DNA of 41,855 nt from an uncultured bacterium (GCA_963981005.1 CAXCCM010000002.1:1-41855); one strand, 5' to 3'. Counted from the first letter of the stretch, positions 9,660 to 35,043 are shown. Notes: generated by a model not told the origin, from the letters alone. Translations and numbers: made by a program.

Positions 9660-9771
9660 TAATATTCCTTTATTAAACTCTAATTTTTTTATCATTGTCT
9701 GTAAGAAACTTTATAGTTTTACTTATCGAATCATTACCTAACCAAAATAAGTGTCCATATTCATTATTCCA

Positions 9772-10497: not shown

Positions 10498-10540
10498 ATA
10501 AGCTATCTCCTTCTAATGTTTGTGACATACTGTAGTTGTC

Positions 10541-12178: not shown

Positions 12179-12232
12179 TATTGCTCCTTTTTGACTTTGA
12201 TACAGTAAATGTTTCTTTTGTTGTTACTTGTT

Positions 12233-14352: not shown

Positions 14353-14373
14353 CTTGGTCTAGACTACCCTTAT

Positions 14374-16884: not shown

Positions 16885-16939
16885 TTTAATTCCTTTCGTT
16901 TTTTGTTTTAATTACATAAACATTTAAGTAGAAACCTAA

Positions 16940-17671: not shown

Positions 17672-17689
17672 ATTTACATTTCTCTTATA

Positions 17690-18625: not shown

Positions 18626-18639
18626 TTTTCAATCTTCCT

Positions 18640-19602
18640 TTAAATTTTTCGATTAACAATAGGTTTTTGCTCAACTTCTAAATCACAAATGTATGGATCG
18701 TGACTAGGGTAAAACAAGTGTGTTTTTGACAGGATGTCCACCCTTCCTCTGCCGGTTTTGTTGTTATTTAGTACTTCAATATTATACACAATTTCATGTG
18801 ATCTTATCAAACCATAACCTTCCACAATTCTACCAAATGTTTTAAAAGTTGGATCAACAGGGATCCATCCATAATTCTCTAAATAAAACTCCCCCCATGC
18901 ATGACGATAGGCAAAAACATGGCGTGCGGGAATATTCTTACATCTTAATAGGGACAATAAAACAGTTGATAGACCTCCACAATCTCCACCCTCATTTTTT
19001 AAAATTTCCAACGTTGTTTTTCCGTATCCGGATGTACTTTTAAACGTGAGGTTGTCATTAACATAGTCAAAACATTTTTTAGCATAAGCATATACATCAG
19101 TTGCATCTATCCAGAGTTCATCACTGATCTTTTTTATAGTCGCATTTTCGATATCAATAATATCATAGTACTGTTTTGTATAGCGTTTGTAAATATCGGA
19201 AGTTGTATCGTATTCATAAATTCTATCTATATTTGCTGAAACATATTCTGTGTTTGAGGGTACATAGTCAAACTCAATCATCACTTCACCCCAATCACCT
19301 TCAGCCGGTTGTTGCTCAGGTGAAATAGTAAAGCGAACATAATTATCCGGAGAGTCTGGATTATCAAGTATCTCTCCGCTGTGTGTATCGATATTGGATA
19401 TCAGCTGATAATCATTATTACGTGGAAGCGGACAATAGATGAATTGTAAATTTTCTCCTGCCTTTACCTTCTTAAACTTTATTTTATGAGTATAACGATA
19501 AACCTGATCATCTATCGAATTATCAGTTGTTTCAGCGGTTAAACTATATGTCAGAAATACAAGAAAAAGTATGTTCAATAAATGTATTTTAAACTTTTTC
19601 AT
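18640..19602 (-). CDS. Secreted transglutaminase-like (papain-fold) protein
   Basis: Signal peptide, plus a Cys-His-Asp core: GGDCGGLS ... HAWGEFY ... GWIPVDPT. Confidence 0.75.
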   Translation of the reverse strand: MKKFKIHLLNILFLVFLTYSLTAETTDNSIDDQVYRYTHKIKFKKVKAGENLQFIYCPLPRNNDYQLISNIDTHSGEILDNPDSPDNYVRFTISPEQQPAEGDWGEVMIEFDYVPSNTEYVSANIDRIYEYDTTSDIYKRYTKQYYDIIDIENATIKKISDELWIDATDVYAYAKKCFDYVNDNLTFKSTSGYGKTTLEILKNEGGDCGGLSTVLLSLLRCKNIPARHVFAYRHAWGEFYLENYGWIPVDPTFKTFGRIVEGYGLIRSHEIVYNIEVLNNNKTGRGRVDILSKTHLFYPSHDPYICDLEVEQKPIVNRKI

Positions 19603-19604
19603 AT

Positions 19605-21398
19605 TTATTCCTCTAATTTAACGCATTTAGATTCTCTTCCACCTTGGGTTAATGTCATACTTTCTACTTTTCCATCATTCTTTAAATTAAATGTAAATTG
19701 AGCTTCGAATATTTTTGGATAAAAAACATTTTCAGATTCAGAAAAAATTTCAAACTGATCTTGACCAGTTGCCTGAGCTTTCATTTGCTTACCTTCTTTC
19801 GTAACAGTAATAATAAACCCTTCTCGTAGTTCATATTTACCCACATAACTTTCCAAAATGGCATTATCAACAGGCTTATCTATAACTAATCGTCCAACCA
19901 TAGCGTATGTTGGAGGTTCCATAAACGCGTTTCTAGTTGTAGGAAAACCTGTCATTCCTGATTCTGCACGTTGACCAGATTCTGAAACAAAACTGATATT
20001 TCCCGATTTGTCAGGGTAAATATTAAATAGGAAACATGAACCTAAGTAGGTTGAATAAAGGAGTTTACTATTTTTAATGTCGATTACAGAAACAAAAGAT
20101 TTTTTGCGTGCAAAAAAACCTGAGTTAAAGGTCTTCTCTCCGACTGGATAATCTGAATACAAAGCGTTCTCGGTAAGCGGAAAATCGGCAGAACTTGTTG
20201 TTCCTCCAATAACAATAGTATCATTATTAAGAAAATTTACTGACATGACTTTATCGGCTTCACTTCCTCCAAATAATGTTGAGTATTCTAATGTCATATC
20301 ATCAGAATTAAATACAGATATGAAGCAATCCTGTTTACCCTTACCTTTTTTGCTAATAGCATTATCAGTTACTGGGAAATTTTCTTCCTTAGTGCTGCCT
20401 GAGACTATCAATCTGTTTGGTTTTGTCCATTTTAAATTTGAGCTCTGATATCCATCGGCTGCGAAATAGCTTAAATATGAAATTTTGTTGTCTGCTGCGT
20501 TTATTTTGGCAATAAAATGATCCATTCTGGCTCTATTTTCAGGTTTGATGAATTCTTTGCGAATAGCATTATCAGTTACTGGTAAGTCTGCTGTAAGAGT
20601 ACCGCCTGTAATATATATATTATCTTTGTCATCAACATCAAGCCCAAGAATCATTTCCATTTGGCTACTTCCAAAGAATGTGGAGAATAAAAGCTTTTCT
20701 CCATCTGGATTAAATTTAGAGACGAAACCATGGTGCTTTTTACTTGTAGAGTCAATGACACCTTTTGTTAGAGGAAAGTCATGAGAAAGGGTAACTCCCA
20801 CAAGAATAATATTACCTTTAGAATCAATTTTAATGCATCCCCCGCTTACAGTTTCTTCAACTTCACCTCCAAGAAATGTAGAAAATATGATATCAGTTCC
20901 AGTTGGATTCATTTTAGTTAAGAAAACATCGCCAGCCCATTGTCCTTCACCATTAAAACTAGTATCATACACTCCTTCAGTTACAGGAAAATCTGATGAT
21001 TCTGTACCTCCTGCTAAATAAATAAATCCTTGTTCATCCACTGTTATAGCTGTATGATGTTCTCTTTTTGTACCACCAATTAATGTTGCAAAAACTATTT
21101 CCCCTTTGGGTGTAAATTTTGCTACAAAGACATCGGCCAAATCCTCACCCTTTAATTCAGTTTGATACGCTCCTTCAGTAGCTGGAAAATTCTTATCTTT
21201 AGTATTTCCTGAAATATAAGTATACCCTTCGTTATCGGTATAAATATCAAAACCTGATGCAAATCTATCAGTATGCGAAAGATAAGTAGAAAAACCAAGC
21301 TTATATGCTAAGCTATCTGCAAATTCTATTGTTTGCGAGTTTAGAATTCCTAGATTAAAAAGAATTCCTAATAAGATGAAACTAATTTTTTTTAACAT
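19605..21398 (-). CDS. Secreted SBBP-repeat beta-propeller protein with a C-terminal DUF3471-like domain
   Basis: Signal peptide. At least 6 repeats of G(G/N/S)T...(D/N)FP(V/L/A)T(E/D/K)(G/N)A type are present. The tail YVGKYELREGFIITVTKEGKQMKAQ...FTFNLKNDGKVESMTL resembles the domain usually appended to beta-lactamase-fold enzymes. AAGGAG RBS. Confidence 0.7.
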   Translation of the reverse strand: MLKKISFILLGILFNLGILNSQTIEFADSLAYKLGFSTYLSHTDRFASGFDIYTDNEGYTYISGNTKDKNFPATEGAYQTELKGEDLADVFVAKFTPKGEIVFATLIGGTKREHHTAITVDEQGFIYLAGGTESSDFPVTEGVYDTSFNGEGQWAGDVFLTKMNPTGTDIIFSTFLGGEVEETVSGGCIKIDSKGNIILVGVTLSHDFPLTKGVIDSTSKKHHGFVSKFNPDGEKLLFSTFFGSSQMEMILGLDVDDKDNIYITGGTLTADLPVTDNAIRKEFIKPENRARMDHFIAKINAADNKISYLSYFAADGYQSSNLKWTKPNRLIVSGSTKEENFPVTDNAISKKGKGKQDCFISVFNSDDMTLEYSTLFGGSEADKVMSVNFLNNDTIVIGGTTSSADFPLTENALYSDYPVGEKTFNSGFFARKKSFVSVIDIKNSKLLYSTYLGSCFLFNIYPDKSGNISFVSESGQRAESGMTGFPTTRNAFMEPPTYAMVGRLVIDKPVDNAILESYVGKYELREGFIITVTKEGKQMKAQATGQDQFEIFSESENVFYPKIFEAQFTFNLKNDGKVESMTLTQGGRESKCVKLEE

Positions 21399-21432: not shown

Positions 21433-21448
21433 TGCATATTCTATGCCA
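21433..21448 (-). promoter_or_regulatory. Sigma-54 (-24/-12) promoter P1 for the nine-gene cluster
   Basis: The minus strand reads TGGCATAGAATATGCA, with GG and GC at the consensus TGGCAC-N5-TTGCW spacing. It ends 35 nt upstream of the ATG at 21398. Confidence 0.7.
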
Positions 21449-21511
21449 AACACCTAATATCACATTTTACAATAAGTTAGTTATAACTTACAGTTTATTT
21501 AGTCTTAAAGG

Positions 21512-21548
21512 TGTTCATCAACGTTCAATTTTTGTTCTCTTGTGAACA
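21512..21548. promoter_or_regulatory. Paired candidate enhancer (UAS) sites upstream of P1
   Basis: TGTTCatcaacGTTCA (21512-21527) and the perfect palindrome TGTTCtcttgtGAACA (21533-21548). The starts are 21 bp apart, and the pair lies 64-100 bp upstream of the -24 element. Confidence 0.5.
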
Positions 21549-21589
21549 GTGTAGAGCGATTCACCTGGAACAATAACTTCTTAAAAATT

Positions 21590-21958
21590 CTAACAAATAA
21601 CTGATCGATTATTATCTAATAGTTCTAAAAGCATTGGCATTGACACTGGCTTCACTAGATAATCGAGATACTTAGTTTTTTGCAACCTTTTAGTATATTG
21701 TGAAATCGGATCTGAGCTATGAAAAATTATATGAGTTTTATGCAATTCCTGAATCAAACATGCAATTTCGATCCCATCAATATCTCCCAAAACATTTATA
21801 TCCATCAAAAAAAAATCTGGTTTAAACTCTTCAGCTGCTTTAAGTGCACTTTTATAATCACATGCTATTGAACAGACATCATGACCATTTTCTTCTAATA
21901 AAAACTTGATATCTTGCGCGATCAATACTTCATCTTCTACAATACAAATAGTATTCAA
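21590..21958 (-). CDS. Stand-alone response-regulator receiver (CheY-like)
   Basis: IVEDE, FFLMDINV (phospho-acceptor Asp) and a conserved VKP lysine region. As sequenced it has only a TTG start, 2 nt after a G7 run; see findings. Confidence 0.75.
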   Translation of the reverse strand: MNTICIVEDEVLIAQDIKFLLEENGHDVCSIACDYKSALKAAEEFKPDFFLMDINVLGDIDGIEIACLIQELHKTHIIFHSSDPISQYTKRLQKTKYLDYLVKPVSMPMLLELLDNNRSVIC

Positions 21959-22088
21959 ATCCCCCCCATAATCACAGAGATAGAGTTTGCATTATACCCC
22001 ATCTCTGCTAAAAAATATTCTTTGTACTCAATTCAAGATCCTTGGAATAATCTTCCAGATTGGAAGAGGTTTTCCATGATTGTATTAT

Positions 22089-25000
22089 TTATTTCATTAG
22101 GATCATTTTCTTCGTTGAAACATACTTGTCGGCTTTCATCTTGTAGAAATAAACGCCACTTGAAACTTTTTTGTTAGTATAGTCAGTTCCATTCCAGGTT
22201 ACAATGTGATCCCCTGATTCATTCACGTCATTTACGAGGGTCTTCACGAGCTGGCCGCGTAGATTGTAAATTTCCAAAGTCACGTTTCCAGTTTCTTTGA
22301 CTGAATAAGCAATATTGGTTTCAGGATTGAAAGGATTGGGATAATTTCCAGCAAGCTCTGTTATAGCAATGATATTATTACCGGCATTAGTTCCCATATA
22401 TGTGAATTCAATGGTAACTATATCAGATTCACCATCATCATAAATTGCTTGTACACCAGCAGTATATGTTTGATTGTAAACCAAATTTTCTAATAACCAT
22501 TCTGTATCGGTTGTATTACCTTCAAAGCTGGTATCCAAAAATACATTGTAGCTTTCCAGTTCTCGGCTGGAATTTACATTGTGATCTAGTGCATTAACAA
22601 ATACTTTTTCACGTTGAGTTGTAGTATGTGCACCTACTTCTTTTAGAGGAGTAGGAGAAAGTTCCGCAACAGTTCCATCGCCATACTGAACAACTGCACG
22701 AATGAGATAAGCTTCAGACCAAGATGTCCAACCTCCACCATTATTATGATCCCAAGATCTTCCATTATTCAAATTTGTATTACAGCTCATATAAGTATCT
22801 TCATCGATTGAACCAAAGGCAACAACGAAATCATTATCAACCATTAGGTTTTCATCAGATACATCTATTATTACCCAGTCATCAAAAAGAGCATAAGCTA
22901 ATTCAGTGTGTAATAGATCTTCTGTAGGAGCCCCTGCATCCCAGCCCCATACTTCAGCATTGAACTCTGTACCTGAAGAGGTGTGTATTTTCAGTTCCAG
23001 AATTTGGCAGGCTTCACTAGGACTCATTTGAGTTCCCATACTAAAACCAACATAGCTGTATTGGCCGTTACTTACACCATTATCGTAGATTAGTTCCTCA
23101 ATATCACCGCCGCCACCAACTGGTGCATCCCAAGTGAAAAGTCCATCTTCATCAACTGCTAAGTTTGTTGGTGGATCAAGAGTTGTGGCTGGATTATAAG
23201 TGAAATCTACTTCTACGCACTCAGATATACCGTCATCATAAACTGCTTCTACGCCAGCAGTGTAAGTCTGACCGCTAGTAAGATCAGAGAACATCCATTC
23301 TATATCGATAGTATTACTAACCATTTCACCATCAAGATAAACATTGTAACTTTCCAATTCTCGGCTGGAATTTACATTGTGATCTAGTGCACCAACTTTT
23401 TTTACAGGAGTTGAAGAGAGTTCGGCAACAGTGCCTGGTGCATCCCAGGTGAAAAGGCCATCTTCATCAACTGCCAGGTTGGTAGGTGGATCAAGAGTTG
23501 GTATTACTACATCTGTCAGCATCACATCATCAATATACCAGTAGTTAATGCCGTAAGAATCACCATTCAGATAGAAGCACATTTGGAATGTAGCTGATCC
23601 AACATCTGCATTAGTTATGGTTACGTTAACTGTTTCAGGTCCAACAGCACCAGCTGGAATAATCGACCATGCATCATTCCAGGTTGTACCATCGCTGCTC
23701 GTAGCTACACCCAGTGTGTATCCACCTGAATAGTCATCAACACAGTGCTTGAATTCTACAGCTATTTCTGTCATCTCTGATGTATCCAGAACCATTGTGC
23801 ACATTCTTGATATATCATTAAATGGGGGTGTCCAACTGAACATCATCTCAGTTCCAGTACCGCCTGCATGGTTTCCTGCAGAGGATCCCCAGTTTGTTTG
23901 CCCCACTCCATCGATATACCAGCCGGCTGGTGGAACACCACCACCGAAATCTTCTAAGATCAGAATACCCTCTGCACCAATAAAAGCTAAATTGGAAGTG
24001 GCTTCTCCACCATCACCAATTAAATTATAGGGAACAACTGTGTAGCAATATGTTCCAGCTAAAGGAATTGTATTATCTATATAAGATGTATTTAGCCCGG
24101 TTACTTCAAATAAAACACCGTCATTTCTTTCGATGTGATAACCACCAATAACATTGTTAAAAGAACCGCCATGCAATCCGGTTGTGGGATTATCCCAAGT
24201 AAGTGTTCCTGATAAAATACCGGGAGATGTTTGCGTTAAAATAAGATTATTAACCGCAGCCGGAGCATCTTCTCCAACCCAAATAGTACTCTCAACCGTG
24301 ATCCCCTCACCAGCATCATTGAAGCCAACAACACCATAGGTATAAATTCCGGCCGTTAGCATACTAGAATCTACGTGAGAACCTGTGCCACCGATAACAG
24401 GAGCTGTATCTGTGTAGATGAGTGTTCCATCTCTGTAGACTCTCATCTCATCGAGATCCGCAAGAGTGTTTCCGCCAATTGTTGTTGTTGGACAAGTCCA
24501 GCCGATATCAGCTTGGAAAATACCATTAGCACCCGGGGTAACAGTTACATCTGTAGGAGCGGCAGGTGAATTAAGAGTTTCAGCTGACAAATTTATATCT
24601 AAAGTGGTTATCTCTTCAGATAAGATCTCCACATCAGGGATTGTTAGAGTATTATAACCATCCATTGTACATATCACATCATAAATCCCAGCCATTTTAT
24701 CAAAGCTGTACGACCCATCAGCAGCAGTTTCCGCAAAAGTAAAATACCCGTCTGTTATGATCGCACCTTCAATAGCATCACCTGTATCAGCATCTGTAAC
24801 CGTTCCTGCTACAGAACCGAAATCACATTCCTGATAGCAGCATAATCCACCCTCATATGTACCTATCCAGAGTCTGGATTCAGCATCAAGCTCCAGACTC
24901 AATATATTATCTGTGGGTAGTCCGGAGTTTGTACTATTGTAGGAATACCAATCATTACCATCATATTTTGCCAATCCTGCTTCAGTTCCTACCCAGACAT

Positions 25001-25775
25001 TGCCTTGATTATCGATCAGGATTTCCTGAGTATAATTACTGGGAAGATTGGAGTTATTAACATTGTACACTGACCAGATAGTGCCATCAAAACATGCAAC
25101 ACCACCACCAAAAGTAGCCATCCAAATATTGTTTTCATTATCAAATTCAATATCATAGACAGTATCATCCGGAATCTCTGAATTCCCTGTATTGTAAGAG
25201 CTCCATTCAGAGCCATCAAAGCTAGTCAGACCACCCCACTGGGTTCCAATCCATTTTACATCATCTTGATCAACATTTATTGTATAGATCGTATTATCGG
25301 GTAACTGACTATTATTCATGTCGAAAACTTCCCAGACAGAACCATCAAAACTGGCAATTCCACCAAAACTGGTTCCAATCCATTTAACATTATCTTCATC
25401 AATTGTAATTTCTGTAACCAGAGGATATGGGAGCGGAGATGCCCCATATGTATATTCAGTCCAGCTAGAACCATCAAAAACTGCAGCGCCATTACCAGAT
25501 CCGATCCAAATATTACCATTCTCCTCTCTGGCTATACACCTTATAGTTGCATAATCATAATAATAATTCTGCCAATTTACATCATCATAACTGGCTAGGC
25601 CACCACTGAATGTTCCTACCCACTTCACATTATCAGGAGCGATTAATAGATCATATACATCATCTGCCGGAATACCTGAGTTTGTAAGATCATAAATGTC
25701 CCATTCCTCAGCATAAGCTAAGAAAGAGACTGAAAATAAAATTAACATCACTAATAATAAACTTTTACTCTTCAT
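22089..25775 (-). CDS. Large T9SS cargo protein with propeller, CarboxypepD_reg, FN3-like, anchor-J-like and CTD modules
   Basis: Signal peptide. Repeated NVKWIGT..GGL..FDG..W blades are present, followed by GTVTDADTGDAIEGAII. The central region is shared with 25837..28347. The terminal NYPNPFNPETNIAYS...LEIYNLRGQLV...SGVYFYKM is a type A sorting domain. Confidence 0.8.
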   Translation of the reverse strand: MKSKSLLLVMLILFSVSFLAYAEEWDIYDLTNSGIPADDVYDLLIAPDNVKWVGTFSGGLASYDDVNWQNYYYDYATIRCIAREENGNIWIGSGNGAAVFDGSSWTEYTYGASPLPYPLVTEITIDEDNVKWIGTSFGGIASFDGSVWEVFDMNNSQLPDNTIYTINVDQDDVKWIGTQWGGLTSFDGSEWSSYNTGNSEIPDDTVYDIEFDNENNIWMATFGGGVACFDGTIWSVYNVNNSNLPSNYTQEILIDNQGNVWVGTEAGLAKYDGNDWYSYNSTNSGLPTDNILSLELDAESRLWIGTYEGGLCCYQECDFGSVAGTVTDADTGDAIEGAIITDGYFTFAETAADGSYSFDKMAGIYDVICTMDGYNTLTIPDVEILSEEITTLDINLSAETLNSPAAPTDVTVTPGANGIFQADIGWTCPTTTIGGNTLADLDEMRVYRDGTLIYTDTAPVIGGTGSHVDSSMLTAGIYTYGVVGFNDAGEGITVESTIWVGEDAPAAVNNLILTQTSPGILSGTLTWDNPTTGLHGGSFNNVIGGYHIERNDGVLFEVTGLNTSYIDNTIPLAGTYCYTVVPYNLIGDGGEATSNLAFIGAEGILILEDFGGGVPPAGWYIDGVGQTNWGSSAGNHAGGTGTEMMFSWTPPFNDISRMCTMVLDTSEMTEIAVEFKHCVDDYSGGYTLGVATSSDGTTWNDAWSIIPAGAVGPETVNVTITNADVGSATFQMCFYLNGDSYGINYWYIDDVMLTDVVIPTLDPPTNLAVDEDGLFTWDAPGTVAELSSTPVKKVGALDHNVNSSRELESYNVYLDGEMVSNTIDIEWMFSDLTSGQTYTAGVEAVYDDGISECVEVDFTYNPATTLDPPTNLAVDEDGLFTWDAPVGGGGDIEELIYDNGVSNGQYSYVGFSMGTQMSPSEACQILELKIHTSSGTEFNAEVWGWDAGAPTEDLLHTELAYALFDDWVIIDVSDENLMVDNDFVVAFGSIDEDTYMSCNTNLNNGRSWDHNNGGGWTSWSEAYLIRAVVQYGDGTVAELSPTPLKEVGAHTTTQREKVFVNALDHNVNSSRELESYNVFLDTSFEGNTTDTEWLLENLVYNQTYTAGVQAIYDDGESDIVTIEFTYMGTNAGNNIIAITELAGNYPNPFNPETNIAYSVKETGNVTLEIYNLRGQLVKTLVNDVNESGDHIVTWNGTDYTNKKVSSGVYFYKMKADKYVSTKKMILMK
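23195..24585 (-). repeat. Paralogous block shared with 26145-27535 (constant 2,950-nt offset)
   Basis: The alignment is collinear with no net indel. Identity is patchy, from near-identical around 24240-24570 to clearly lower around 23780-23990. Confidence 0.85.
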
Positions 25776-25836
25776 TTGTTTTCCTCCAATTTTTTATATT
25801 ACTTTTTTTGATACTTTTACTTAATCTGCTTTTTTT

Positions 25837-28347
25837 TCATTTCATTAGGATCATTTTCTTTGTAGATGTGAAATTTAGAGTTTTCATTTTGTAGAGGTAG
25901 ACTCCACTTGCAACAGTCTTACCTGAATCATTAGTACCATTCCACGAAATGATATGATCTCCAGATTCAACTACACCTCTGATAAGTCTCTTAACAAGTT
26001 GACCGCGTAGATTGTAAATTTCCAAAGTCATGTTTCCGAGTTCTTTGACTGAATAGGCAATATTTGTTTCAGGATTGAAAGGATTTGGATAGTTTCCAGC
26101 AAGTTCTGTTTTAGCAATGATGTTATTGCCAGCATCAGCTCCAATATAGGTAAAATCTATTGTCACAAGCTCAGACATACCGTCATCATAAACTGCTTCT
26201 AAGCCGGCTGTGTAAGTCTGACCGCTAGAAAGACTACTGAATTGCCAGAAGCTATCATCAGTACTGCCCTCAAAATATCCATCGAGATAAACATTGTAAC
26301 TCTCCAGTTCTCGGCTGGAATTTACATTGTGATCCATCACATCAACAAATACTTTTTCACGTTGAGCTGTAGTATGTGCACCAACTGGTGCATCCCAAGT
26401 GAAAAGGCCATCATCATCAACTGCTAGGTTTGTTGGTGGATCAAGAGTTGGTATTACTTCATCTGTAAGCATCACATCATCAACATACCAATAGTTGAAA
26501 TCAGATGAGTTTCCTACAAAATAGAAGCACATTTGAAATGTAGCGGATCCAACATCAGTTGTGGTAACAACAAAATTAACTGTTTCAGGTCCAATTCCTC
26601 CGGTTGGAACAATCGACCATGCATCATTCCAGATTGTACCATCGCTGCTAGTTGCTACACCCAGTATATATCCACCTGAATAGTCATCAACACAGTGCTT
26701 GAATTCTATAAATATCTCTGTCATATCTGATGTATCCAGAACCATTGTACACATTCTTGATATACCAATAAAACAGGGTTCCCAAGCTAGCACCATCTCA
26801 ATTCCAGAACCGCCTGCATGGTTTCCTGTAGAAGATCCCCAATTTGATTGGCCCATTTCATCACTATGCCAACCAGTTGGTGGAACACCATCACTGAAAT
26901 CTTCTGAGATCAAAAAACCCTCTGAACCAATAAAAACTAAATTGGAAGTAACACTTCCACCATCACCAATTAAATTATAGGGAACAACTGTGTAGCAATA
27001 TACTCCAGCTAAAGGAATTGTATTATCTATATATGATGTTGTTGAACCAGTTACTTCAAATAGAACACCGTCATTTCTTTCGATATGATAACCACCAATA
27101 GCATTGTTAAAAGCACCACCGTGCAATCCGGTTGTGGGATTATCCCAGGTAAGTGTTCCGGATAGATCGCCGGGAGAGGTTTGAGTTAAATTAAGATTAT
27201 TAACTGCTGCCGGAGCATCTTCTCCAACCCAAATAGTACTCTCAACCGTGATTCCTTCACCAGCATCATTAAAACCAACAACACCATAAGTATAAATTCC
27301 TGCATATAGCATACTAGAATCTACGTGAGAACCTGTGCCACCAACGGTTGGAGTTGTATCTGTGTAGATGAGTGTTCCATCTCTGTAGACTCTCATCTCA
27401 TCAAGATCTGTAAGAGTGTTTCCGCCAATTGTCGTAGTTGGGCAAGTCCAGCCAATATCAGCTTGGTAAATACCATTAGCGCCAGGGGTAACAGTTACAT
27501 CTGTAGGAGCTGAGGGTGAATCAGGAGATTCAGCATCACGCAGTTCCATTCCGTAAAGAAAATCAATTTCTCCTTGTCCAAGACAACCTAAAATAGTTTT
27601 ACCAGGAACCAGTCCACCTTCGTAATAGAATGCACCTCCAATAACTCCGGCATTACCAAGAGTAACGGAGTAAGAAGTTCCGGTTGGTGCACCACTTAAA
27701 TCATATTGAATAAATGTGGTTGGTTCAGCAAAAAGCCATAAGCAATCTGCATAGGAGTCATAAGCCAAACCATAGGCGGAGTTATCATCAGCATAAATAT
27801 TGATTACATTACCATTAACATCAAATTCATAAATGGGATCACTAAAACTCTTTGTCCAGAAATGGTTACCGTCATAAGCTAAAGCACGGATAGTTCCAAA
27901 TGATGTGCCAAATTCTGTAGTCCAGGTTTCTGAAGCAATATCAAATGAGAAGAAATTAGTCTCATTTCCACCATAGATTTTACCTTCAGAGGCAACATAT
28001 GCCAGGTCCCGAATTCCCCAGACGAATGCGGCAGCTGGTTGTTCGTAACTATTAACTAAGGTTCCTGCAATCGGATCTATTTTGTAGAGGTAGTTGGGAT
28101 CTACGCCATTTCCACCACCGGTAGCCCATATATTAGTACCATCATATTCTACACCAAGCAGTTGATTATCATTTGCTATGCCCTCCACATCAAGTGAATA
28201 TATGATCTCTCCAACTTCGTCTGTGATCACAGGGATTGTTGATGCTGGTCCAACATCATTCAACAACGGTGCTGCTTCTACTCTTTTATCAGCAAATAAA
28301 CCTGCTGAGACCAGCAATACTAACACTAACAAAAAAAACATTTTCAT
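25837..28347 (-). CDS. T9SS cargo protein, paralog of 22089..25775 with a different N-terminal propeller-like region
   Basis: I place the start at MKMFFLLV (AAGGAGA RBS) rather than the ORF-track 28386, which would overlap the upstream receiver gene. It has the same FN3-like and anchor-J-like core and the same T9SS CTD. Confidence 0.8.
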   Translation of the reverse strand: MKMFFLLVLVLLVSAGLFADKRVEAAPLLNDVGPASTIPVITDEVGEIIYSLDVEGIANDNQLLGVEYDGTNIWATGGGNGVDPNYLYKIDPIAGTLVNSYEQPAAAFVWGIRDLAYVASEGKIYGGNETNFFSFDIASETWTTEFGTSFGTIRALAYDGNHFWTKSFSDPIYEFDVNGNVINIYADDNSAYGLAYDSYADCLWLFAEPTTFIQYDLSGAPTGTSYSVTLGNAGVIGGAFYYEGGLVPGKTILGCLGQGEIDFLYGMELRDAESPDSPSAPTDVTVTPGANGIYQADIGWTCPTTTIGGNTLTDLDEMRVYRDGTLIYTDTTPTVGGTGSHVDSSMLYAGIYTYGVVGFNDAGEGITVESTIWVGEDAPAAVNNLNLTQTSPGDLSGTLTWDNPTTGLHGGAFNNAIGGYHIERNDGVLFEVTGSTTSYIDNTIPLAGVYCYTVVPYNLIGDGGSVTSNLVFIGSEGFLISEDFSDGVPPTGWHSDEMGQSNWGSSTGNHAGGSGIEMVLAWEPCFIGISRMCTMVLDTSDMTEIFIEFKHCVDDYSGGYILGVATSSDGTIWNDAWSIVPTGGIGPETVNFVVTTTDVGSATFQMCFYFVGNSSDFNYWYVDDVMLTDEVIPTLDPPTNLAVDDDGLFTWDAPVGAHTTAQREKVFVDVMDHNVNSSRELESYNVYLDGYFEGSTDDSFWQFSSLSSGQTYTAGLEAVYDDGMSELVTIDFTYIGADAGNNIIAKTELAGNYPNPFNPETNIAYSVKELGNMTLEIYNLRGQLVKRLIRGVVESGDHIISWNGTNDSGKTVASGVYLYKMKTLNFTSTKKMILMK
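26145..27535 (-). repeat. Paralogous block shared with 23195-24585
   Basis: See the partner entry. The 3' ~310 nt (25837-26150) also matches 22089-22400, at an offset of 3,748 nt. Confidence 0.85.
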
Positions 28348-28363
28348 TATTATCTCCTTATTT

Positions 28364-28762
28364 TCAAATGATTTCCCTTTTATCATGTATATCTTCTGCT
28401 TTTATTCTCTGAATTGATTCAATTAGAAATTCATAGTTAAATGGTTTTTTCATGAACAAATAGGCACCCCGATCTAAAGCTTCAGCCTGGGTTTCTTCAT
28501 CTGCAAAGGCAGAATAAATAATTACTTTGGCTTCATTATTCATTTGTAAGATCAATTTTAATACATCGATCCCATTGAGTTTTGGCATCCGAAAATCTGT
28601 TATAATAAGCTGGTAAATATTTTTATCATATTTTGATAGAGCTTCTTCCGGGTCTTTGAAGCCATGATTTGGAAAACCACCTATTTTCAGCGCATACCGT
28701 ATACTTTTTAATGTAAATTCATTATCATCAATCACCATTATCAATTTATTATCCTTTTCCAT
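28364..28762 (-). CDS. Stand-alone response-regulator receiver, first gene of the T9SS-cargo operon
   Basis: MVIDDNEF, LIITDFRMPKLNG and MKKP motifs. GGGAGGAAA RBS. Confidence 0.8.
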   Translation of the reverse strand: MEKDNKLIMVIDDNEFTLKSIRYALKIGGFPNHGFKDPEEALSKYDKNIYQLIITDFRMPKLNGIDVLKLILQMNNEAKVIIYSAFADEETQAEALDRGAYLFMKKPFNYEFLIESIQRIKAEDIHDKREII

Positions 28763-28799
28763 TTTTCCTCCCCCACTTTTTTCTCACAACTAAGAAAGT

Positions 28800-28815
28800 A
28801 GCAAATAGTGTACCA
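28800..28815 (-). promoter_or_regulatory. Sigma-54 (-24/-12) promoter P2
   Basis: The minus strand reads TGGTACACTATTTGCT, with correct GG-N10-GC spacing. It ends 38 nt upstream of the ATG at 28762. Confidence 0.7.
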
Positions 28816-28978
28816 AACAGAAAAGGTCGAGAAATGTAAGACTTATATGTTTAATATATAGATAGTTAAAGCTTTGAGGAACAAATTGTAATGAGTTATA
28901 TGAAAAGGTAGATCAATTCATTTTGAATCGTTCAAATTGAACTATAAATTCAGAATGGATCGGATAAAATTTGTTAGT

Positions 28979-30412
28979 TTATAGATCTCCGATTATTCGA
29001 CGAACCTTATTAATGGAAATTTTCAGATAGGAAGCAGTTTTAGTTTTATTTCCTTCAAACTTAGCTAGGATTTTTTCTACAACTTTCTTTTCAATATCAT
29101 ACAAACTAAGGTCATGTTCGGGAAAACTAATACTCAAACTATCAGAAGAATCAGTTGAATTCATTTTTTTATCCAGCAGAGATTTGATCCGATCTGCATT
29201 CAAAAGATCATCATTAGAAAGAAAGGCAGCTTGTTCCATTGTATTTTGGAGCTGTCGTACATTGCCAGGCCAATCGTAATTTAATAGAACCATAGTAGCT
29301 TCTTTAGTCAGAATTTTGACAGGTTGTTTCCTTAACCTGGCAAACTCTTCTAGGAACATTCTGGCTAAAGGAAGGATGTCTTCTTTACGTTGTTGCAAGG
29401 TAGGAATTGCTATTTTGGCTTTATTGATCCGGTAAAATAGATCCAAACGAAAACGATTTTCTTCTATCCCTTTTTCAAGTTTACAATTTGTTGCACAGAT
29501 CAATCGAAAATTAAGAGGAATTTTCCTAGATCCACCTACCCTGTAAATCTCTCTATCTTGCAGAGCTTTTAACAATTTCGGCTGCATTTCCAGCGGTAGT
29601 TCTCCAATCTCATCCAGAAATAGAGTCCCACCATTCGATAGTTCCATTTTACCCATCTGGCCTTTTCTGCTGGATCCCGTAAAAGCTCCAGCTTCATGGC
29701 CAAATAGTTCACTTTCGAATAAAGTAGGCGTGATTGACGCACAGTTTAAGGAGACAAAAGGTTTACCAAAATCATTATCTCCATAATGTATCATTCTGGC
29801 GATGATCTCTTTCCCAGTTCCAGAATCACCTTGAATTAATACGGGAATTGTAGAATCACCATGAAGTTTTTTAGCCATTTCAGTTACCTGTTTCATCTCT
29901 TCAGAAAAAATTCCAACTTTACCAATTCCTGAAACTTCTGCATAAGCATATTGCAGTTTTTTTAGTTTATCATTGATCAGGGCAGTTTCAGATTGAACCT
30001 TTTCATCGAACTTATTACGTAAAACAGTATTTTCCTTAAGCAGCTTTTGATGATCTTCCACCTTGCTAATAACAGTGACGAGCTCCTCAAGATCAATTGG
30101 TTTGCTCAGGTAATCGTAGGCACCTGCTCTTAATGCACCTAAAATACTTTGCGTATCTGTATGACCGGTTATTAATACAATGTCTGTATCTTTACCATCA
30201 GGATTGTCTTTGATCTTCTTGGTTAATGTAAAACCATCCATACCAGGCATGCGAATATCACTGATAATCATGGGAAACGAAGAATTTGAAAAGATCTTTT
30301 CACCTTCTAAAGCATTGTCGCAAACGGTTACTTCATGATTCAATTGATACTTCAGGAAATCGCTTATCGCTTTAGAAATCAATTTATCATCATCAATAAC
30401 TAATATTCTCAA
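28979..30412 (-). CDS. NtrC-family sigma-54-dependent response regulator (receiver, AAA+ and Fis-type HTH)
   Basis: ISDIRMPGMDG receiver, GDSGTGKE Walker A, ESELFGHEAGAFTGS (GAFTGA loop) and a C-terminal HTH (KTKTASYLKISINKVRR). The start overlaps the kinase stop. Confidence 0.9.
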   Translation of the reverse strand: MRILVIDDDKLISKAISDFLKYQLNHEVTVCDNALEGEKIFSNSSFPMIISDIRMPGMDGFTLTKKIKDNPDGKDTDIVLITGHTDTQSILGALRAGAYDYLSKPIDLEELVTVISKVEDHQKLLKENTVLRNKFDEKVQSETALINDKLKKLQYAYAEVSGIGKVGIFSEEMKQVTEMAKKLHGDSTIPVLIQGDSGTGKEIIARMIHYGDNDFGKPFVSLNCASITPTLFESELFGHEAGAFTGSSRKGQMGKMELSNGGTLFLDEIGELPLEMQPKLLKALQDREIYRVGGSRKIPLNFRLICATNCKLEKGIEENRFRLDLFYRINKAKIAIPTLQQRKEDILPLARMFLEEFARLRKQPVKILTKEATMVLLNYDWPGNVRQLQNTMEQAAFLSNDDLLNADRIKSLLDKKMNSTDSSDSLSISFPEHDLSLYDIEKKVVEKILAKFEGNKTKTASYLKISINKVRRIIGDL

Positions 30413-32103
30413 CTTTCTGCTCCCTCATTTTTTTTAAACGTTATCACAAACTCAGCACCACCGGATTTTTTATTTCCGGCCTTGATGTCAGCATTATATT
30501 TTTCTACATAATTTTTCACGATTGCCAAACCTAACCCCATTCCTTTGTCAGGTGATTTGGTTGAATAAAAAGGGTCGTAAATTTTTTCTCCCACTTCCAA
30601 AGCGAAGCCTGATCCATTATCAGAGATTTTTATTTCAGCATGATCGCCCTTACTCCTGGTACAAATATGTATTCGCTTATCTTTTTGGTTTGAATCATCC
30701 AGAGAATGGATTGCATTTGTGACAATATTCAGAATAATCTGTTCGATATGGATTGATTCGGCACAAATAAGTAGTTTCTGCTTTGCCAATTTAGTCTCAA
30801 TAAACACTCCATGCGAATAAAGCTGTCTTTCGATTAAATTTAGAGCATGTTTCACAGCTTCGTTAATGTCTATCGGTTTAAGCGAATTTGTCTTTGGAAG
30901 CTTCCAGAATGAGCGCATGTGTTTAATTATCTCATCGATTCGATTGCTAGCTTCGACAATATTTTCCAAGCCTTCTGCCAGGTATTCCGGTAAGATCAGA
31001 TCATTTTTTTTGTTCCAATATAAGATGCTTTCAGCACTCATTTTAATAGCACAGACAGGTTGATTGATTTCGTGAGTTATACCGCCTGAGATCACACCGA
31101 TTGAAGCTAATCTTCCGGCTTTTTCCATCATCTGTTTGGAAAGAAGTTCTTTTCTCTCTATTTCATGAGAAGAAGAGACATCTGCCAATCTCTTTGTTAA
31201 TTCTTCTGTGAAAAGAGAGTCTTTAATTTTTGAGTGTTTTTTATAAAATTTCAAGGCAGATTCAAAATCTTTCTGTTTTTCGTAATCCCTTGATAAATAT
31301 AGATATATATTTTTGATAAATTCTTTATATCCCAATTCTTCTGCCATTTGGAGTGTCTTGGAATGTGTTTTTACTGCTTCCTTGAATTGCCCCAAATTGC
31401 AATAAGAAGCTCCCAGATTATTCATAGCTGGTATCAATATCTTTTTATCTTCTAACTCACGAGCAACATCAATAGCTTTAGTAAAATATTGGATAGCCCG
31501 TTCATGCTGATCTAAAGCCATATATGCTTCACCAATATTCACAAGTATGATAGCTTCACTTCTTTTTAGATTGTGTTTTGAACAAAAGGAAGATGCTTCT
31601 TCCAGATACTTTAGAGCTTCATCATATCTTTTCATTCTAAGGTATACAATTCCGGTATTGATAATAATTGATTCAGTGTTATAAGTTGCATTATAATCAT
31701 CTTTTTGTGGAACGTATCTCTTTGCTTTCAGGAAATATTCCAGGGCTTTATCCAAATCGTTCATGTTTAAATAAATAAGACCAACATTTCCCAGAGAGAT
31801 GGCAATAGCAGGATTATTATCGATCTTCTTATAGACGTTGAGAGTTTGTAAAAAATAATTCAAAGCTTTATCATAATTATTGGATGAAACATTGATTAAG
31901 CCTAAGGTGTTCAAAGCTGATGCTTCCAAGTTCTGAAGATTATTATTTTGGGCCATGTTCAGAGTGAGTTGAGCAAATTTTTTACTGTTTTTCAAATCGG
32001 ATTGATGCCAATAACTGACAGCAAGTTTGCTGAATAACTCTACTTTTTTCTCAAGATTCTGCTCAGTGTTAGCTTGATGAATCCTTTCCTTCATACTTTT
32101 CAT
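30409..32103 (-). CDS. Cytoplasmic TPR-repeat sensor histidine kinase
   Basis: The N-terminal ~300 aa are TPR-like repeats (..ALNYFLQTL.., ..ALEYFLKA.., ..AIQYFTKAI..) with no hydrophobic helices. It has an H-box GGITHEINQP, a G1 box SDNGSGF and a G2 box GMGLGLAIV. I place the start at MKSMKER, after a TAGGAGCA RBS. Confidence 0.85.
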   Translation of the reverse strand: MKSMKERIHQANTEQNLEKKVELFSKLAVSYWHQSDLKNSKKFAQLTLNMAQNNNLQNLEASALNTLGLINVSSNNYDKALNYFLQTLNVYKKIDNNPAIAISLGNVGLIYLNMNDLDKALEYFLKAKRYVPQKDDYNATYNTESIIINTGIVYLRMKRYDEALKYLEEASSFCSKHNLKRSEAIILVNIGEAYMALDQHERAIQYFTKAIDVARELEDKKILIPAMNNLGASYCNLGQFKEAVKTHSKTLQMAEELGYKEFIKNIYLYLSRDYEKQKDFESALKFYKKHSKIKDSLFTEELTKRLADVSSSHEIERKELLSKQMMEKAGRLASIGVISGGITHEINQPVCAIKMSAESILYWNKKNDLILPEYLAEGLENIVEASNRIDEIIKHMRSFWKLPKTNSLKPIDINEAVKHALNLIERQLYSHGVFIETKLAKQKLLICAESIHIEQIILNIVTNAIHSLDDSNQKDKRIHICTRSKGDHAEIKISDNGSGFALEVGEKIYDPFYSTKSPDKGMGLGLAIVKNYVEKYNADIKAGNKKSGGAEFVITFKKNEGAES

Positions 32104-32264
32104 TTTTGCTCCTACTTTAAGCATTAATAATTAGCTATCATAATAGAAATTATTAATATCTTCTTCCTAATTACCTTATGTGCGTGGCGTTGATTTATTG
32201 CTTACTGCTTAAATCTACTTCGAAAAAATATTCATCTTAATACTATCAATTTCTGCATAATTAT

Positions 32265-32280
32265 TGCATTTTCTATACCA
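32265..32280 (-). promoter_or_regulatory. Sigma-54 (-24/-12) promoter P3, candidate autoregulated promoter of the HK/NtrC operon
   Basis: The minus strand reads TGGTATAGAAAATGCA, very close to P1. It implies a ~150-nt leader, unlike the ~25-nt leaders of P1, P2 and P4, so confidence is lower. Confidence 0.5.
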
Positions 32281-32345
32281 ATTTTTTTATCGTCCTATTT
32301 TACAGTATGTTAGATCATTACATATTATTGTTATCCCTTCATAAT

Positions 32346-32382
32346 TGTACAAATACGATCAGATTATGTTCGTATTTGAACA
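32346..32382. promoter_or_regulatory. Paired candidate enhancer (UAS) sites in the divergent HK / permease region
   Basis: TGTACaaatacGATCA (32346-32361) and the perfect palindrome TGTTCgtatttGAACA (32367-32382). The starts are 21 bp apart. The pair lies 66-102 bp upstream of P3 and about 204 bp upstream of P4. Confidence 0.5.
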
Positions 32383-32585
32383 TATTTTATCACTTCAAAG
32401 ACAAGGAATGTATTTATAGATAAACTAAAAGATCCAACGGAAATCTGAGCCATAATTTAGCATTTAAGTTAGGTCGATTTTATGCTGTGCAAAATGTCCG
32501 TAAATGAACGCATATTGTACTCCTGCGTACATATTTATTAGGAGATACTAATGCTATCTCTTTATAACAATTTATTTTATGCGTT

Positions 32586-32601
32586 TGGCATACTAATTGC
32601 A
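32586..32601 (+). promoter_or_regulatory. Sigma-54 (-24/-12) promoter P4 for the FtsX-family permease
   Basis: TGGCATACTAATTGCA is a near-perfect match to the consensus. It ends 34 nt upstream of the ATG at 32635. Confidence 0.75.
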
Positions 32602-32634: not shown

Positions 32635-35043
32635 ATGTTCAAGAACTATATCAAAATCGCTTACCGCAACATCCTTAAACAAAAAACATATTCAGCTATT
32701 AACATTTTTGGATTAGCTCTGGGCCTAACAGCCTGTATTTTGGTCGGACTATATATTTATCAAGATTTCAACTATGATAATTATCATGCAAATGGTGAAA
32801 ATATATATCGTGTAAGTATAGAAATGGTTACTCCAGATGATACTTTCAATTTTGCACAAACACCTGCTCCGGTAGCGCCAAGTTTAAAGCAAAATTATCC
32901 TGAGATCAATAAAATTTCCCGGATCTTTTTTGCCAAAAACGATCTTATCACATACGAAAAGAACAAATTCTATGAGGAAGAAATCGTCTTTGCTGATGAA
33001 GATTTTTTCAAGATCTTCAGCTACAGCACATTACAAGGAAATCCTAATACGTTCTTGCAAAAAGATAACTCTGTTGTGATAACAAAAAAAATAGCTGATA
33101 AATATTTTGGTACAGAAAACCCCGTTGGTAAAATCCTTAATTATAATAGCAGGATCGATCTGGAAGTTGTTGGTGTTGTCGAGAATGTACCAATAAACTC
33201 ACATTTCACTTTTGATATGGTAGTTACATATAATTCTCTTATTCAGCTTCCGCAGGGTAGATACTTAGATCAATGGGGAGCAACTTTTGGTTCTTACACT
33301 TATGTGCTAATGCATCCGGGAACTGATCTTGATAAATTTGTAGATAAAGCTGGTCCCTTCCTTACAGAAAAAATGGAAACAACCGATAGAGTTCATGAAT
33401 CTGTTATTTTGCAACCGATTAAATCTATTCATATGTTTTCTAATCTTGAGGATGAAATAAATCCCAATAGCTCAATTACATATATACTAATTCTAGGGTC
33501 AATTTCGCTTTTCATACTAATATTAGCATGCATCAATTTTGTAAATTTAACAACTGCCAGAGCAGTGAAAAGAGCTAGAGAGATTGGTGTGAGAAAAGTG
33601 TTTGGTGCCTTCAGATTACAATTAGTCAGACAATTCCTGGGTGAATCTATCATAACGACATTGATAGCATTAGCATTTGCATTTGTGTTTGTTGAGCTTT
33701 TCATTCCACTATTTTCTCAGTTAATAGGAACAACACTGGTCTACAGTCTTTTTGATAACCCTTATATCTTACTAATTATATTAGCAGGTTCTCTAATTAT
33801 TGGAATTTTAGCTGGTTTGTATCCAGCTTTTGTACTCACACATTTCCAACCTGCTTTAGTAATGAAAGGTGCAACCAAACAAGGAAAAAGTAGTTCAGCA
33901 TTACTTAGAAAAGGCTTAGTTCTATTTCAGTTTTCCATTTCCATAATTCTCATTATTTTCACAATTCTGATAAATAAACAGATTAATTTCATGCGAAATT
34001 TTGATATGGGATTTGAAAAAGAACAGATTGTTGTTCTTAAAACCCCAGAAAGAATGTCCCGTAATTCTGAAACTATTAAAGAAGAAATAAATGCAATTCC
34101 CGGAGTTATCGAGTCATCAACTAGTTTGGGTATTCCGTTGCAGAATAGCGGTTTTGGAACAAATCTAAGCCCATATGCTGATTCTGATGAGGATGAATTT
34201 TCTATATCTGTGAAGATGATCGACTCCGAATACATAGATTTTTACCAGATTCCACTATTGGTAGGCAGAAAACTTACTGAGACTGATGAAGCAAATTATG
34301 CAAATGTGACTGTTGTGAATGAAGCAACTGTAAAAAAGCTTGGATTTGCAAATAATGAAGATGCCCTAGGGCACAACTACACAATTGGTTTGAGTGATGG
34401 AGTAAAAAGATTTTCACCCGAGATAGTGGGTGTGATAGAAGATTTTCATTTCAATTCTCTACACGAAGAAGTCTCACCTCTTTTATTTATGTATTGGTAT
34501 TTTCTATTTCAAGAGATCTCTATAAAGATCAGTCCACAAAATGTTCCTGAAACAATGAAAGAGATTAAACTGGTTTGGGAGAAATTTTATCCAGAACATC
34601 CATTTGTATATTCATTTTTAGATGAAGATATAGATAAAATGTATAAAGCAGAAGCAAGATCTTTCCGCGTGATCTCAACCTTCTCATTCTTAGCAATTAT
34701 TATTGCTTGTATGGGTCTCTTGGGACTCACATTCTACACCACCGAACAACGAAGAAAGGAAATTGGAATTCGCAAAATCTTAGGTGCTTCCATACCGGGG
34801 ATTGTAAGGGATATCTCTTTAGAGTTTTTAAAATTAGTTGTTATCGCCAACGTTATAGCTTGGCCGATAAGCTATTTCCTAGTTAAAAAGTGGCTCATGA
34901 ACTTCCCATATAAAATTGATATTGGACTGGACGTATTTTTATTAGCCAGCGGGTTAGCATTATTAATATCTTTTGTAACTATTGGCTATACCGTTATCCG
35001 CAGTGCTTATAGTAATCCTATAGACAGTATTAAGTATGAGTAA
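32635..35043 (+). CDS. ABC-transporter permease of the FtsX/MacB type (two FtsX modules plus a MacB-like periplasmic domain)
   Basis: MFKNYIKIAYRNILKQK is the typical N-terminus. Two FtsX four-helix modules are present, each preceded by RAREIGVRK / RRKEIGIRK. I place the start at the ATG after a GGGAGAAAG RBS. No ATPase gene is adjacent. Confidence 0.85.
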   Translation: MFKNYIKIAYRNILKQKTYSAINIFGLALGLTACILVGLYIYQDFNYDNYHANGENIYRVSIEMVTPDDTFNFAQTPAPVAPSLKQNYPEINKISRIFFAKNDLITYEKNKFYEEEIVFADEDFFKIFSYSTLQGNPNTFLQKDNSVVITKKIADKYFGTENPVGKILNYNSRIDLEVVGVVENVPINSHFTFDMVVTYNSLIQLPQGRYLDQWGATFGSYTYVLMHPGTDLDKFVDKAGPFLTEKMETTDRVHESVILQPIKSIHMFSNLEDEINPNSSITYILILGSISLFILILACINFVNLTTARAVKRAREIGVRKVFGAFRLQLVRQFLGESIITTLIALAFAFVFVELFIPLFSQLIGTTLVYSLFDNPYILLIILAGSLIIGILAGLYPAFVLTHFQPALVMKGATKQGKSSSALLRKGLVLFQFSISIILIIFTILINKQINFMRNFDMGFEKEQIVVLKTPERMSRNSETIKEEINAIPGVIESSTSLGIPLQNSGFGTNLSPYADSDEDEFSISVKMIDSEYIDFYQIPLLVGRKLTETDEANYANVTVVNEATVKKLGFANNEDALGHNYTIGLSDGVKRFSPEIVGVIEDFHFNSLHEEVSPLLFMYWYFLFQEISIKISPQNVPETMKEIKLVWEKFYPEHPFVYSFLDEDIDKMYKAEARSFRVISTFSFLAIIIACMGLLGLTFYTTEQRRKEIGIRKILGASIPGIVRDISLEFLKLVVIANVIAWPISYFLVKKWLMNFPYKIDIGLDVFLLASGLALLISFVTIGYTVIRSAYSNPIDSIKYE

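Follow-up and report, generated by a model that had tools for sequence, protein, structure and literature searches.

Background

In Escherichia coli, zraP-zraSR is the classic example of an autoregulatory divergent sigma-54 layout, with the inverted repeats of the activator located in the shared intergenic region. Other described sigma-54 systems with which a kinase/activator pair can be compared are NtrB/NtrC at glnAp2, AtoS/AtoC, NifA with its upstream activating sequence (TGT-N10-ACA), and the flagellar cascades of Vibrio (FlrA acting on flrBC) and Pseudomonas (FleQ acting on fleSR). Members of the phylum Cloacimonadota, which abound in anaerobic digesters and sediments, have not been cultured, and we know of nothing that has been established about their transcriptional control. 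The subject of the present analysis is a stretch of DNA of 41,855 nt (41.8 kb; 34% G+C, 92% coding) from an uncultured Cloacimonadota bacterium, referred to below as the window, in which a histidine kinase/NtrC-family activator operon and three further units are each preceded by a predicted sigma-54 (-24/-12) promoter (P1 to P4). Two enhancer classes are found at these promoters, class I at P1, P3 and P4 and class II at P2, and the two are conserved independently in different sets of loci. The arrangement that we favour, at a little under an even chance, is a two-tier cascade in which a second activator would drive P1, P3 and P4 while the local kinase/activator pair would drive P2.

The locus resembles zra in that a kinase/NtrC-family operon is divergent from a target gene, with -24/-12 promoters and palindromes between them (P3/P4), for which the local activator is no more than a candidate binder. 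It differs in having a soluble kinase with a TPR sensor, whereas ZraS is a periplasmic metal sensor, in the low score of the local activator against the ZraR equivalog model of NCBIfam (281 bits, cutoff 760), and in its targets, an orphan MacB/FtsX permease together with exported proteins that resemble hydrolases. With NtrB/NtrC and AtoS/AtoC it shares an activator composed of a receiver, an AAA+ domain and a Fis-type helix-turn-helix (HTH), a kinase with an AtoS-like catalytic core (NCBIfam), and tandem dyad sites approximately 100 nt upstream of the promoter; however, the equivalog cutoffs for NtrC (328 against 558.6 bits) and AtoC (327 against 714) are likewise missed, the activator loop reads GAFTGS and the enhancers are unrelated to TGCACC-N5-GGTGCA. 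The class I palindrome TGTTC-N6-GAACA formally fits the NifA pattern at a similar distance from the promoter, a likeness of pattern only: no GAF-domain NifA-type activator and no nif genes are present here, and the conserved positions reach TGTYC/GRACA. The flagellar cascades share the logic of the favoured arrangement, namely an activator acting on the sigma-54 promoter of a kinase-plus-activator operon, which then acts on further promoters via a different enhancer. In this locus there are no flagellar genes, the upstream activator is hypothetical, and the outputs are cargo of the type IX secretion system (T9SS) and envelope or exported proteins. A two-regulator circuit of this type is built from known parts and known logic; it is an ordinary one, and no new mechanism emerges from it.

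The -24/-12 promoter sites

An earlier note on this DNA, made from the sequence alone, had picked out four 16-mers as sigma-54 promoters, and all four were recovered at the coordinates and on the strands that it gave. P1 (TGGCATAGAATATGCA, 21433..21448, minus strand), P2 (TGGTACACTATTTGCT, 28800..28815, minus), P3 (TGGTATAGAAAATGCA, 32265..32280, minus) and P4 (TGGCATACTAATTGCA, 32586..32601, plus) score 14.6, 15.7, 10.5 and 16.5 bits, respectively, values that are indicative only, and their predicted transcription starts lie near 21422, 28789, 32254 and 32612. The GG and GC elements are exactly 10 nt apart in a TGGCAC-N5-TTGCW-like context, with the -12 element of P1 and P3 reading ATGCA instead of TTGCA.

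The units named in the note as lying downstream of P1, P2 and P4 were also found there, namely the SBBP cluster, the receiver and T9SS cargo operon, and the FtsX permease, to which the kinase/activator operon downstream of P3 can be added. P1, P2 and P4 precede start codons with good ribosome-binding sites (RBS) as the note had described, at measured distances of 34 nt (ATG 21398, RBS AGGAG), 37 nt (ATG 28762, RBS GGAGG) and 33 nt (ATG 32635, RBS GGGAG). GTG 32620, offered as the permease start by the open reading frame (ORF) listing, was considered unlikely and ATG 32635 is preferred. P3 is located further from its gene, 140 nt from the kinase ATG at 32124 and 161 nt from a second ATG with a better RBS, giving a predicted leader of approximately 130-150 nt.

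When both strands of the whole window were scanned, the three best matrix matches were P4, P2 and P1, all of them intergenic and on the appropriate strand. These are the only matches of at least 14.5 bits, where dinucleotide shuffles of the window, used as the null for matrix scores, yield 0.65, and all three fall within the 5.6% of the window's strand positions that are promoter-competent, being located 20-160 nt ahead of a start on the same strand (binomial P=1.7e-4). For the loose pattern TGG-N9-TGC, 26 occurrences were counted where shuffles give 13.1 +/- 3.9.

Several points weigh against these sites. The matrix is an approximate one, based on the consensus of Barrios 1999, and the score of P3 lies within the background of coding DNA. 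Domain scans detected no Sigma54 domain or rpoN in the window, and a tblastn search with the C-terminus of RpoN gave no match in the comparison loci (approximately 650 kb in total), in which the class II element described below was also sought. Together with look-alikes in coding DNA at 39945 (14.4 bits), 12892 (14.1 bits) and 39276 (12.7 bits), the low score of P3 and the lack of rpoN from the window and the comparison loci would fit an explanation in which the operons use sigma-70 or Bacteroidetes-type promoters and AT-rich DNA happens to match the sigma-54 pattern at some or all of the sites. This explanation appears very improbable in view of the positional enrichment, of GG and GC elements that stay invariant beside variable spacers down to 40% kinase identity, of palindromes at fixed upstream distances that accompany the intergenic sites and none of the three coding look-alikes, and of the intact sigma-54 activator encoded next door. 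With regard to similar 16-mers in coding DNA, a possibility that the earlier note had itself raised, P1, P2 and P4 stand out from them but P3, by sequence alone, does not. Judged on sequence, position and conservation, P1 to P4 are probably real sigma-54 promoters, and we infer their dependence on sigma-54 from these features.

One of the look-alikes, at 39276 (TGGCATTGTTAATGCA), was considered as a fifth promoter serving a T9SS metallophosphatase and rejected, as it falls within the coding sequence itself, past an evident signal peptide that starts at 39133. Another is part of a near-palindrome within the Kelch gene (12892-12908, TGGCATAGATCTTGCCA) that fits the -24/-12 pattern read on either strand (14.1 and 12.2 bits); it lacks an upstream palindrome and is in all likelihood a chance match. 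A scan of the window for sigma-70 promoters and terminators showed no enrichment and was uninformative, and Rfam and tRNA scans of the window gave no matches. In the literature on Cloacimonadota nothing was found that ties the phylum to sigma-54, and none of the papers listed for T9SS and sigma-54 mentions type IX secretion.

Two enhancer classes

The class I enhancer is a tandem of 16-bp TGTYC-N6-GRACA sites whose centres are 21 bp apart, approximately two helical turns. At P1 it occupies 21512..21548 (TGTTCACAAGAGAACA, 5-nt spacer, TGAACGTTGATGAACA, minus-strand reading), with site 1 starting 100 nt before the TGG of the promoter; at P3 it occupies 32346..32382 (TGTTCAAATACGAACA, 5-nt spacer, TGATCGTATTTGTACA, minus-strand reading), with site 1 starting 102 nt before TGG; and at P4 it occupies 32495..32531 (TGTCCGTAAATGAACG, the 5-nt spacer catat, TGTACTCCTGCGTACA), with site B starting 70 nt before TGG. 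Exact TGTTC-N6-GAACA occurs twice in the window, where 0.07 occurrences are expected, and both copies are those located 100 and 102 nt before P1 and P3; the second site of these two pairs, following after 5 nt, is weaker. With a palindrome matrix the six sites of the window score 14-19 bits and the next best match, in coding DNA, 11.3 bits. The distances between enhancer and promoter (70, ~80, 91 and ~101 nt) advance in steps of roughly one helical turn.

Between the enhancer and P1 lies a block (CTAACTTATTGTAAAAT, 21464..21480, minus strand) that is mostly invariant in an alignment of five sequences and that may be the site of a DNA-bending protein, having a CAA-N4-TTR core on the opposite strand. 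A single RTTC-N5-GAAY 13-mer (GTTCCAGGTGAAT, minus strand), one of seven in the window, was also noted at 21559-21571, 11 nt upstream of the P1 palindrome.

P2 carries a different element. Its class II enhancer (28911..28958; CCATTCTGAAT ... GTTCAATTTGAAC g ATTCAAAATGAAT TGATC) is a tandem of RTTC-N5-GAAY sites that begins approximately 10 nt past the stop codon of the activator gene and 124-127 nt before the TGG of P2. Both classes are dyad-symmetric and lie within 70-150 nt of their promoters (70-102 nt for class I). The region upstream of P2 contains no TGT-N10-ACA site, its best score with the palindrome matrix being -7.7 bits, and P1, P3 and P4 in turn carry no class II tandem element. 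The earlier note had proposed a compact regulon in which one HK/NtrC pair switches on three output units; the promoters are indeed conserved and do precede the units named, but a single enhancer common to them is not found, the P2 element being unrelated to the palindromes.

Conservation of the P2 unit

A search with the kinase of the window returned Cloacimonadota contigs from metagenome-assembled genomes and metagenome contigs, here designated by locus number. Kinase identity to the window is 92% for L018 and L019, 84-85% for L020 and L021, 83% for L001 and approximately 40% for L002, L022 and L023. The order kinase, activator, receiver, cargo, cargo is retained in every locus long enough to show it, even where identity has fallen to 40% for the kinase and 48% for the activator. 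Orthologs of RR2, the stand-alone receiver that opens the P2 operon, occupy the same position in L001, L019, L020, L002, L022 and L023.

A GG-N10-GC element was found 36-38 nt upstream of the RR2 ATG in all eight loci, the window and seven others, with kinases that are 40-92% identical. The site reads TGGTTCACCATTTGCT in L018 and L019, TGGCCCAGCATTTGCT in L020, TGGCTCCGCATTTGCT in L001, TGGCACAGATGTTGCA in L002 and L022, and TGGCACGCTTGTTGCA in L023. GG and TTGC are invariant across the eight while the spacer varies freely, as would be expected where a -24/-12 promoter is functional. The class II enhancer forms a block of approximately 50 nt that is conserved in five close loci (window, L001, L018, L019 and L020), and the DNA from this block to P2 diverges; throughout the comparison loci the tandem element was found only at orthologs of P2. 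In L001, approximately 0.9 kb of tandem repeats (13150-14050; four copies of ~210 bp each) is inserted between the activator gene and the P2 enhancer, so that this enhancer need not abut the activator stop codon.

Conservation of the class I cassette

The class I element is found in another set of loci. Upstream of SBBP orthologs it occurs in L034, where TGTTCATAAGCGAACA is followed after 91 nt by a 16-mer identical to P3 of the window (TGGTATAGAAAATGCA), and in L036, where TGTTCACATGCGAACA is followed after 102 nt by TGGCATATAAAATGCA; the distance in L034 is shorter by one helical turn. The two orthologs are 84-87% identical to the SBBP protein of the window, their neighbours are quite different, and both have the P1-like promoter type TGGYATAnAAAATGCA. 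Upstream of the permease arrays of L041 and L043, TGTCC-N6-GGACG, the spacer tttat and (T/C)GTTC-N6-GAACA are followed after exactly 70 nt by TGGCATATTAATTGCT, itself approximately 40 nt upstream of an FtsX ATG, so that the FtsX-type distance is constant at 70 nt in three loci (window, L041 and L043). In L034, L036, L041 and L043, no activator gene was found within 6-10 kb of the cassette.

Upstream of the kinase gene, the element is present in L018 (TGTTCATATTCGAACA, 102 nt, TGGCATTAAAAATGCA), and no P3 element was found upstream of the kinase in L001, L020 and L021, the kinases of which are 83-85% identical to that of the window. The P3 and L018 regions align with the regions upstream of SBBP in L036 and L034: homology extends through the enhancer, the block CTAACnTAYTGnAAAAT, the promoter and a leader of approximately 90 nt, and for L018 and L036 it runs about 85 nt further upstream. 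Given this homology and the lack of the element in L001, L020 and L021, P3 appears to be a copy of the promoter cassette of the SBBP cluster, placed before the kinase operon in the lineage of the window and L018. A broader form of this proposal is that a portable cassette of approximately 330 nt, consisting of the enhancer, the bend-site-like block, TGGYATAnAAAATGCA and the ~90-nt leader, moves between Cloacimonadota operons and was in this way copied before the kinase/activator operon; we regard it as rather doubtful.

The conserved leader of ~90 nt (window 32125-32254, minus strand; L036 9900-10000; L034 9910-10000; L018 1743-1878) contains a direct repeat (AAATTGAT) and may represent a protein operator downstream of the transcription start. 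A structured RNA was rejected for this leader (consensus energy -0.09 kcal/mol, no covariation).

The kinase/activator pair

The kinase (30409..32124, minus strand; TPR-HisKA-HATPase by Pfam) is followed by the activator (28979..30412, minus), whose start is overlapped by the kinase stop codon. Proteins were annotated by Pfam and NCBIfam profile scans, and the activator was assigned to the NtrC family of enhancer-binding response regulators from its receiver (PF00072, 94.6 bits), AAA+ sigma-54 interaction domain (PF00158, 205 bits) and Fis-type HTH (PF02954, 28.3 bits), from the Walker motifs GDSGTGKE and LFLDEIGE, and from the phospho-acceptor Asp within SDIRMPGMDG. It has the only sigma-54 activator domain in the window by domain scans, in agreement with the earlier note, which had also stated that the kinase lacks transmembrane segments; this holds, the highest 19-residue Kyte-Doolittle mean being 1.48 and located in the ATPase domain. 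The loop that the note gave as GAFTGA is in fact GAFTGS, with F and T retained and a variable last residue. All close orthologs share this reading, whereas L002 has GAYTGA and L044 has GAFTDA. From a soluble TPR sensor a cytoplasmic signal may reasonably be expected, and the domain suggests that the ligand may be a cytoplasmic protein or peptide.

Assignment of activators to enhancers

It is improbable that a single Fis-type HTH dimer would bind sites of the N5 geometry of RTTC/GAAY as well as those of the N6 geometry of TGTYC/GRACA, which implies at least two activators. One HK/NtrC pair driving three units is also made unlikely by the presence of the palindrome cassette on contigs without the kinase/activator pair and by the lack of P3 in close orthologs. 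An arrangement in which the local activator nevertheless drives all four promoters, either by recognizing both enhancer types or by acting at P2 without specific binding, would account for the single activator in the window, for the grouping of four promoters within 11 kb, for the TTC/GAA half-site cores common to both enhancer types and for the class II-like 13-mer adjoining the P1 palindrome. It is improbable nonetheless: besides the HTH argument, the half-sites differ in spacing (N5 versus N6) and flanks, P2 has no palindrome-type site and P1, P3 and P4 no class II tandem element, and the two classes are conserved independently.

In the favoured two-tier cascade, tier 2 would be the ancestral syntenic unit, in which the TPR kinase phosphorylates the adjacent activator. 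The activator would then bind the class II enhancer directly downstream of its own gene and, from approximately 125 nt upstream, turn on P2, from which one receiver, probably also another, and two surface proteins exported by the T9SS would be expressed. Tier 1 would be a second enhancer-binding protein, encoded outside the window, that recognizes the tandem TGTYC-N6-GRACA sites 70-102 nt before the -24 element and activates P1 (an operon of ~11.6 kb encoding mostly exported hydrolase-like and beta-propeller proteins), P4 (the orphan MacB/FtsX-type permease) and P3. Tier 2 is placed under tier 1 on account of the P3 cassette copy before the kinase operon. The local activator is assigned to P2 because of the conserved gene order, an invariant recognition helix, the absence of P3 from close orthologs and a cassette that appears to act in trans; the five loci that retain the class II element are precisely those in which this helix (ISINKVRRII) shows no variation. 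Differing enhancers on the kinase/activator operon (P3, class I) and on its target (P2, class II), as expected of a cascade, were found in the window and L018 only.

A number of observations speak against the cascade. The assignment of activators to enhancers is drawn wholly from synteny, and the palindrome matrix was built from 14 sites that include the window's own six, making that test partly circular. P3 is conserved in just one orthologous kinase locus (L018). The 13-mer next to the P1 palindrome may be due to chance, or it may connect the two classes weakly or be bound weakly by the P2-type activator. The divergent P3/P4 pair with palindromes between favours binding of these palindromes by the local activator, and TPR-type hybrid kinases adjoin SBBP clusters in three Bacteroidota-like loci (L039, L045 and L046), which hints at control of P1 by the local TPR kinase. 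Homology between the local kinase and these hybrid kinases was considered and rejected, as only a generic similarity of 20-22% was seen.

The last two of these observations belong to an arrangement that is the reverse of the favoured one, in which the local activator binds the palindromes and drives its own operon (P3), the divergent P4 and the downstream P1, while another activator drives P2 via class II. Its divergent promoters with shared intergenic palindromes match the zraP-zraSR design, P1 lies directly downstream on the same strand, and TPR sensor kinases neighbour SBBP clusters as described above. Furthermore, an activator 48% identical to the local one is encoded in L025 and L044, and in L044 it is followed by the same type of palindrome (TGTTCAGAATCGAACA) at the same distance of 101 nt from a promoter (TGGCATGTCAATTGCA), so that activators of this family may use such sites. 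Against this, the activator gene has the class II enhancer and P2 as its neighbours in every one of the eight loci, L001, L020 and L021 lack the palindrome, the cassette occurs on contigs with no activator of the local type nearby, and the local recognition helix (INKVRR) differs from that of L044 (RSALRS). The reverse assignment is thus considered possible but on the whole unlikely. For the cascade, adjacency makes a paralogous activator of the L025/L044 type a suggestive candidate for the palindrome binder.

The palindrome and sigma-54 promoter of L044 precede an ORF of approximately 21 aa (MAMEENQTKKDNDESGRFYFF), an ORF of 103 aa and a radical SAM gene (8684-10253), which, downstream of the homologous kinase/activator pair, looks like a sigma-54-controlled cluster of the RiPP (ribosomally synthesized and post-translationally modified peptide) type.

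Target genes

The P2 operon (minus strand) encodes RR2 (28364..28762, identified by Pfam) and two T9SS cargo proteins, cargoA (25837-28386) and cargoB (22089-25775). Both have a hydrophobic N-terminus typical of a signal peptide and a type A C-terminal sorting domain (TIGR04183; 39.6 and 41.6 bits, respectively, cutoff 23), and cargoB additionally contains a Reg_prop propeller, CarboxypepD_reg and fn3. A second stand-alone receiver, RR3 (21590..21958, minus; PF00072, 62 bits), is the last gene before the P1 enhancer, and RR2 and RR3 could modulate the phosphorelay. A large homologous central region is shared by cargoA and cargoB: residues 402-860 of cargoB align at 70-76% (tblastn) with the orthologs of cargoA in L001 and L019, and L001 has a further partial copy. 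Judged from these matches, the cargo family appears to be expanding through tandem duplication.

The P1 unit (9772..21398, minus strand) consists of nine genes with intergenic gaps of at most 55 nt, six of whose products have a signal peptide. The products are an SBBP/DUF3471 protein, a transglutaminase-like protein, a PD40 protein, an NAD-binding protein, an esterase-ankyrin-MBL protein, a beta-lactamase-family protein, a Kelch protein, an amidohydrolase-methyltransferase and a further NAD-binding protein. The gene set recurs in L034, L036, L038, L040, L045 and L046. No sigma-54 promoter was found upstream of the Bacteroidota-like SBBP genes of L038, L039, L040, L045 and L046.

The SBBP/DUF3471 protein (19605-21398, minus) is unusually conserved, with more than 100 cluster representatives that share 60-87% identity along their whole length and derive from assemblies labelled Cloacimonadota, Bacteroidales, Lentimicrobium and Acidobacteriota. 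Its gene is always accompanied by beta-lactamase-family, PD40 and Kelch genes, while the regulators differ between loci, with sigma-54 in some and in others a LytTR two-component system or a TPR hybrid kinase that carries an AraC domain. Such a pattern suggests that the functional cluster has spread horizontally.

P4 precedes a duplicated FtsX/MacB-type permease of 802 aa (32635..35043, plus strand) that has no adjacent ATPase gene. It scores 291.6 against the ADOP model TIGR03434, below the cutoff of 622.3, and 184 as DarB-like, and shares with ADOP only the duplicated MacB_PCD-plus-FtsX architecture. The position of FtsX beside the kinase is not conserved, as the Cloacimonadota orthologs sit in tandem permease arrays elsewhere; such permeases elsewhere adjoin an outer-membrane efflux protein and a TetR regulator.

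Apart from these units, a DUF6088 gene and, downstream of it, a gene for an AbiEii nucleotidyltransferase toxin (5962-7237, plus strand) form a type IV toxin-antitoxin or abortive-infection pair. The AbiEii ORF of 157 aa aligns with no more than the first half of the Pfam model; it may be truncated, or the gene may be divided between this ORF and the next one at 7273-7671.

Implications

It has been proposed that sigma-54 controls the cell exterior (PMC3162934), and the present result fits this proposal. The outputs of P1, P2 and P4 point to a response directed at the envelope or exterior, possibly one that detoxifies or processes a polymer or peptide from outside the cell. If the portable cassette is real, a formerly independent two-component system would have been rewired into a sigma-54 cascade or positive-feedback loop, and this rewiring would couple T9SS surface proteins, orphan MacB-type permeases and a widely shared exported beta-lactamase-fold/beta-propeller cluster to one envelope-directed response. 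For an uncultured phylum, the locus gives a set of sigma-54 promoters, two candidate enhancer motifs of fixed geometry and defined targets, and the motifs can be used for mapping regulons in metagenome-assembled genomes and metatranscriptomes.

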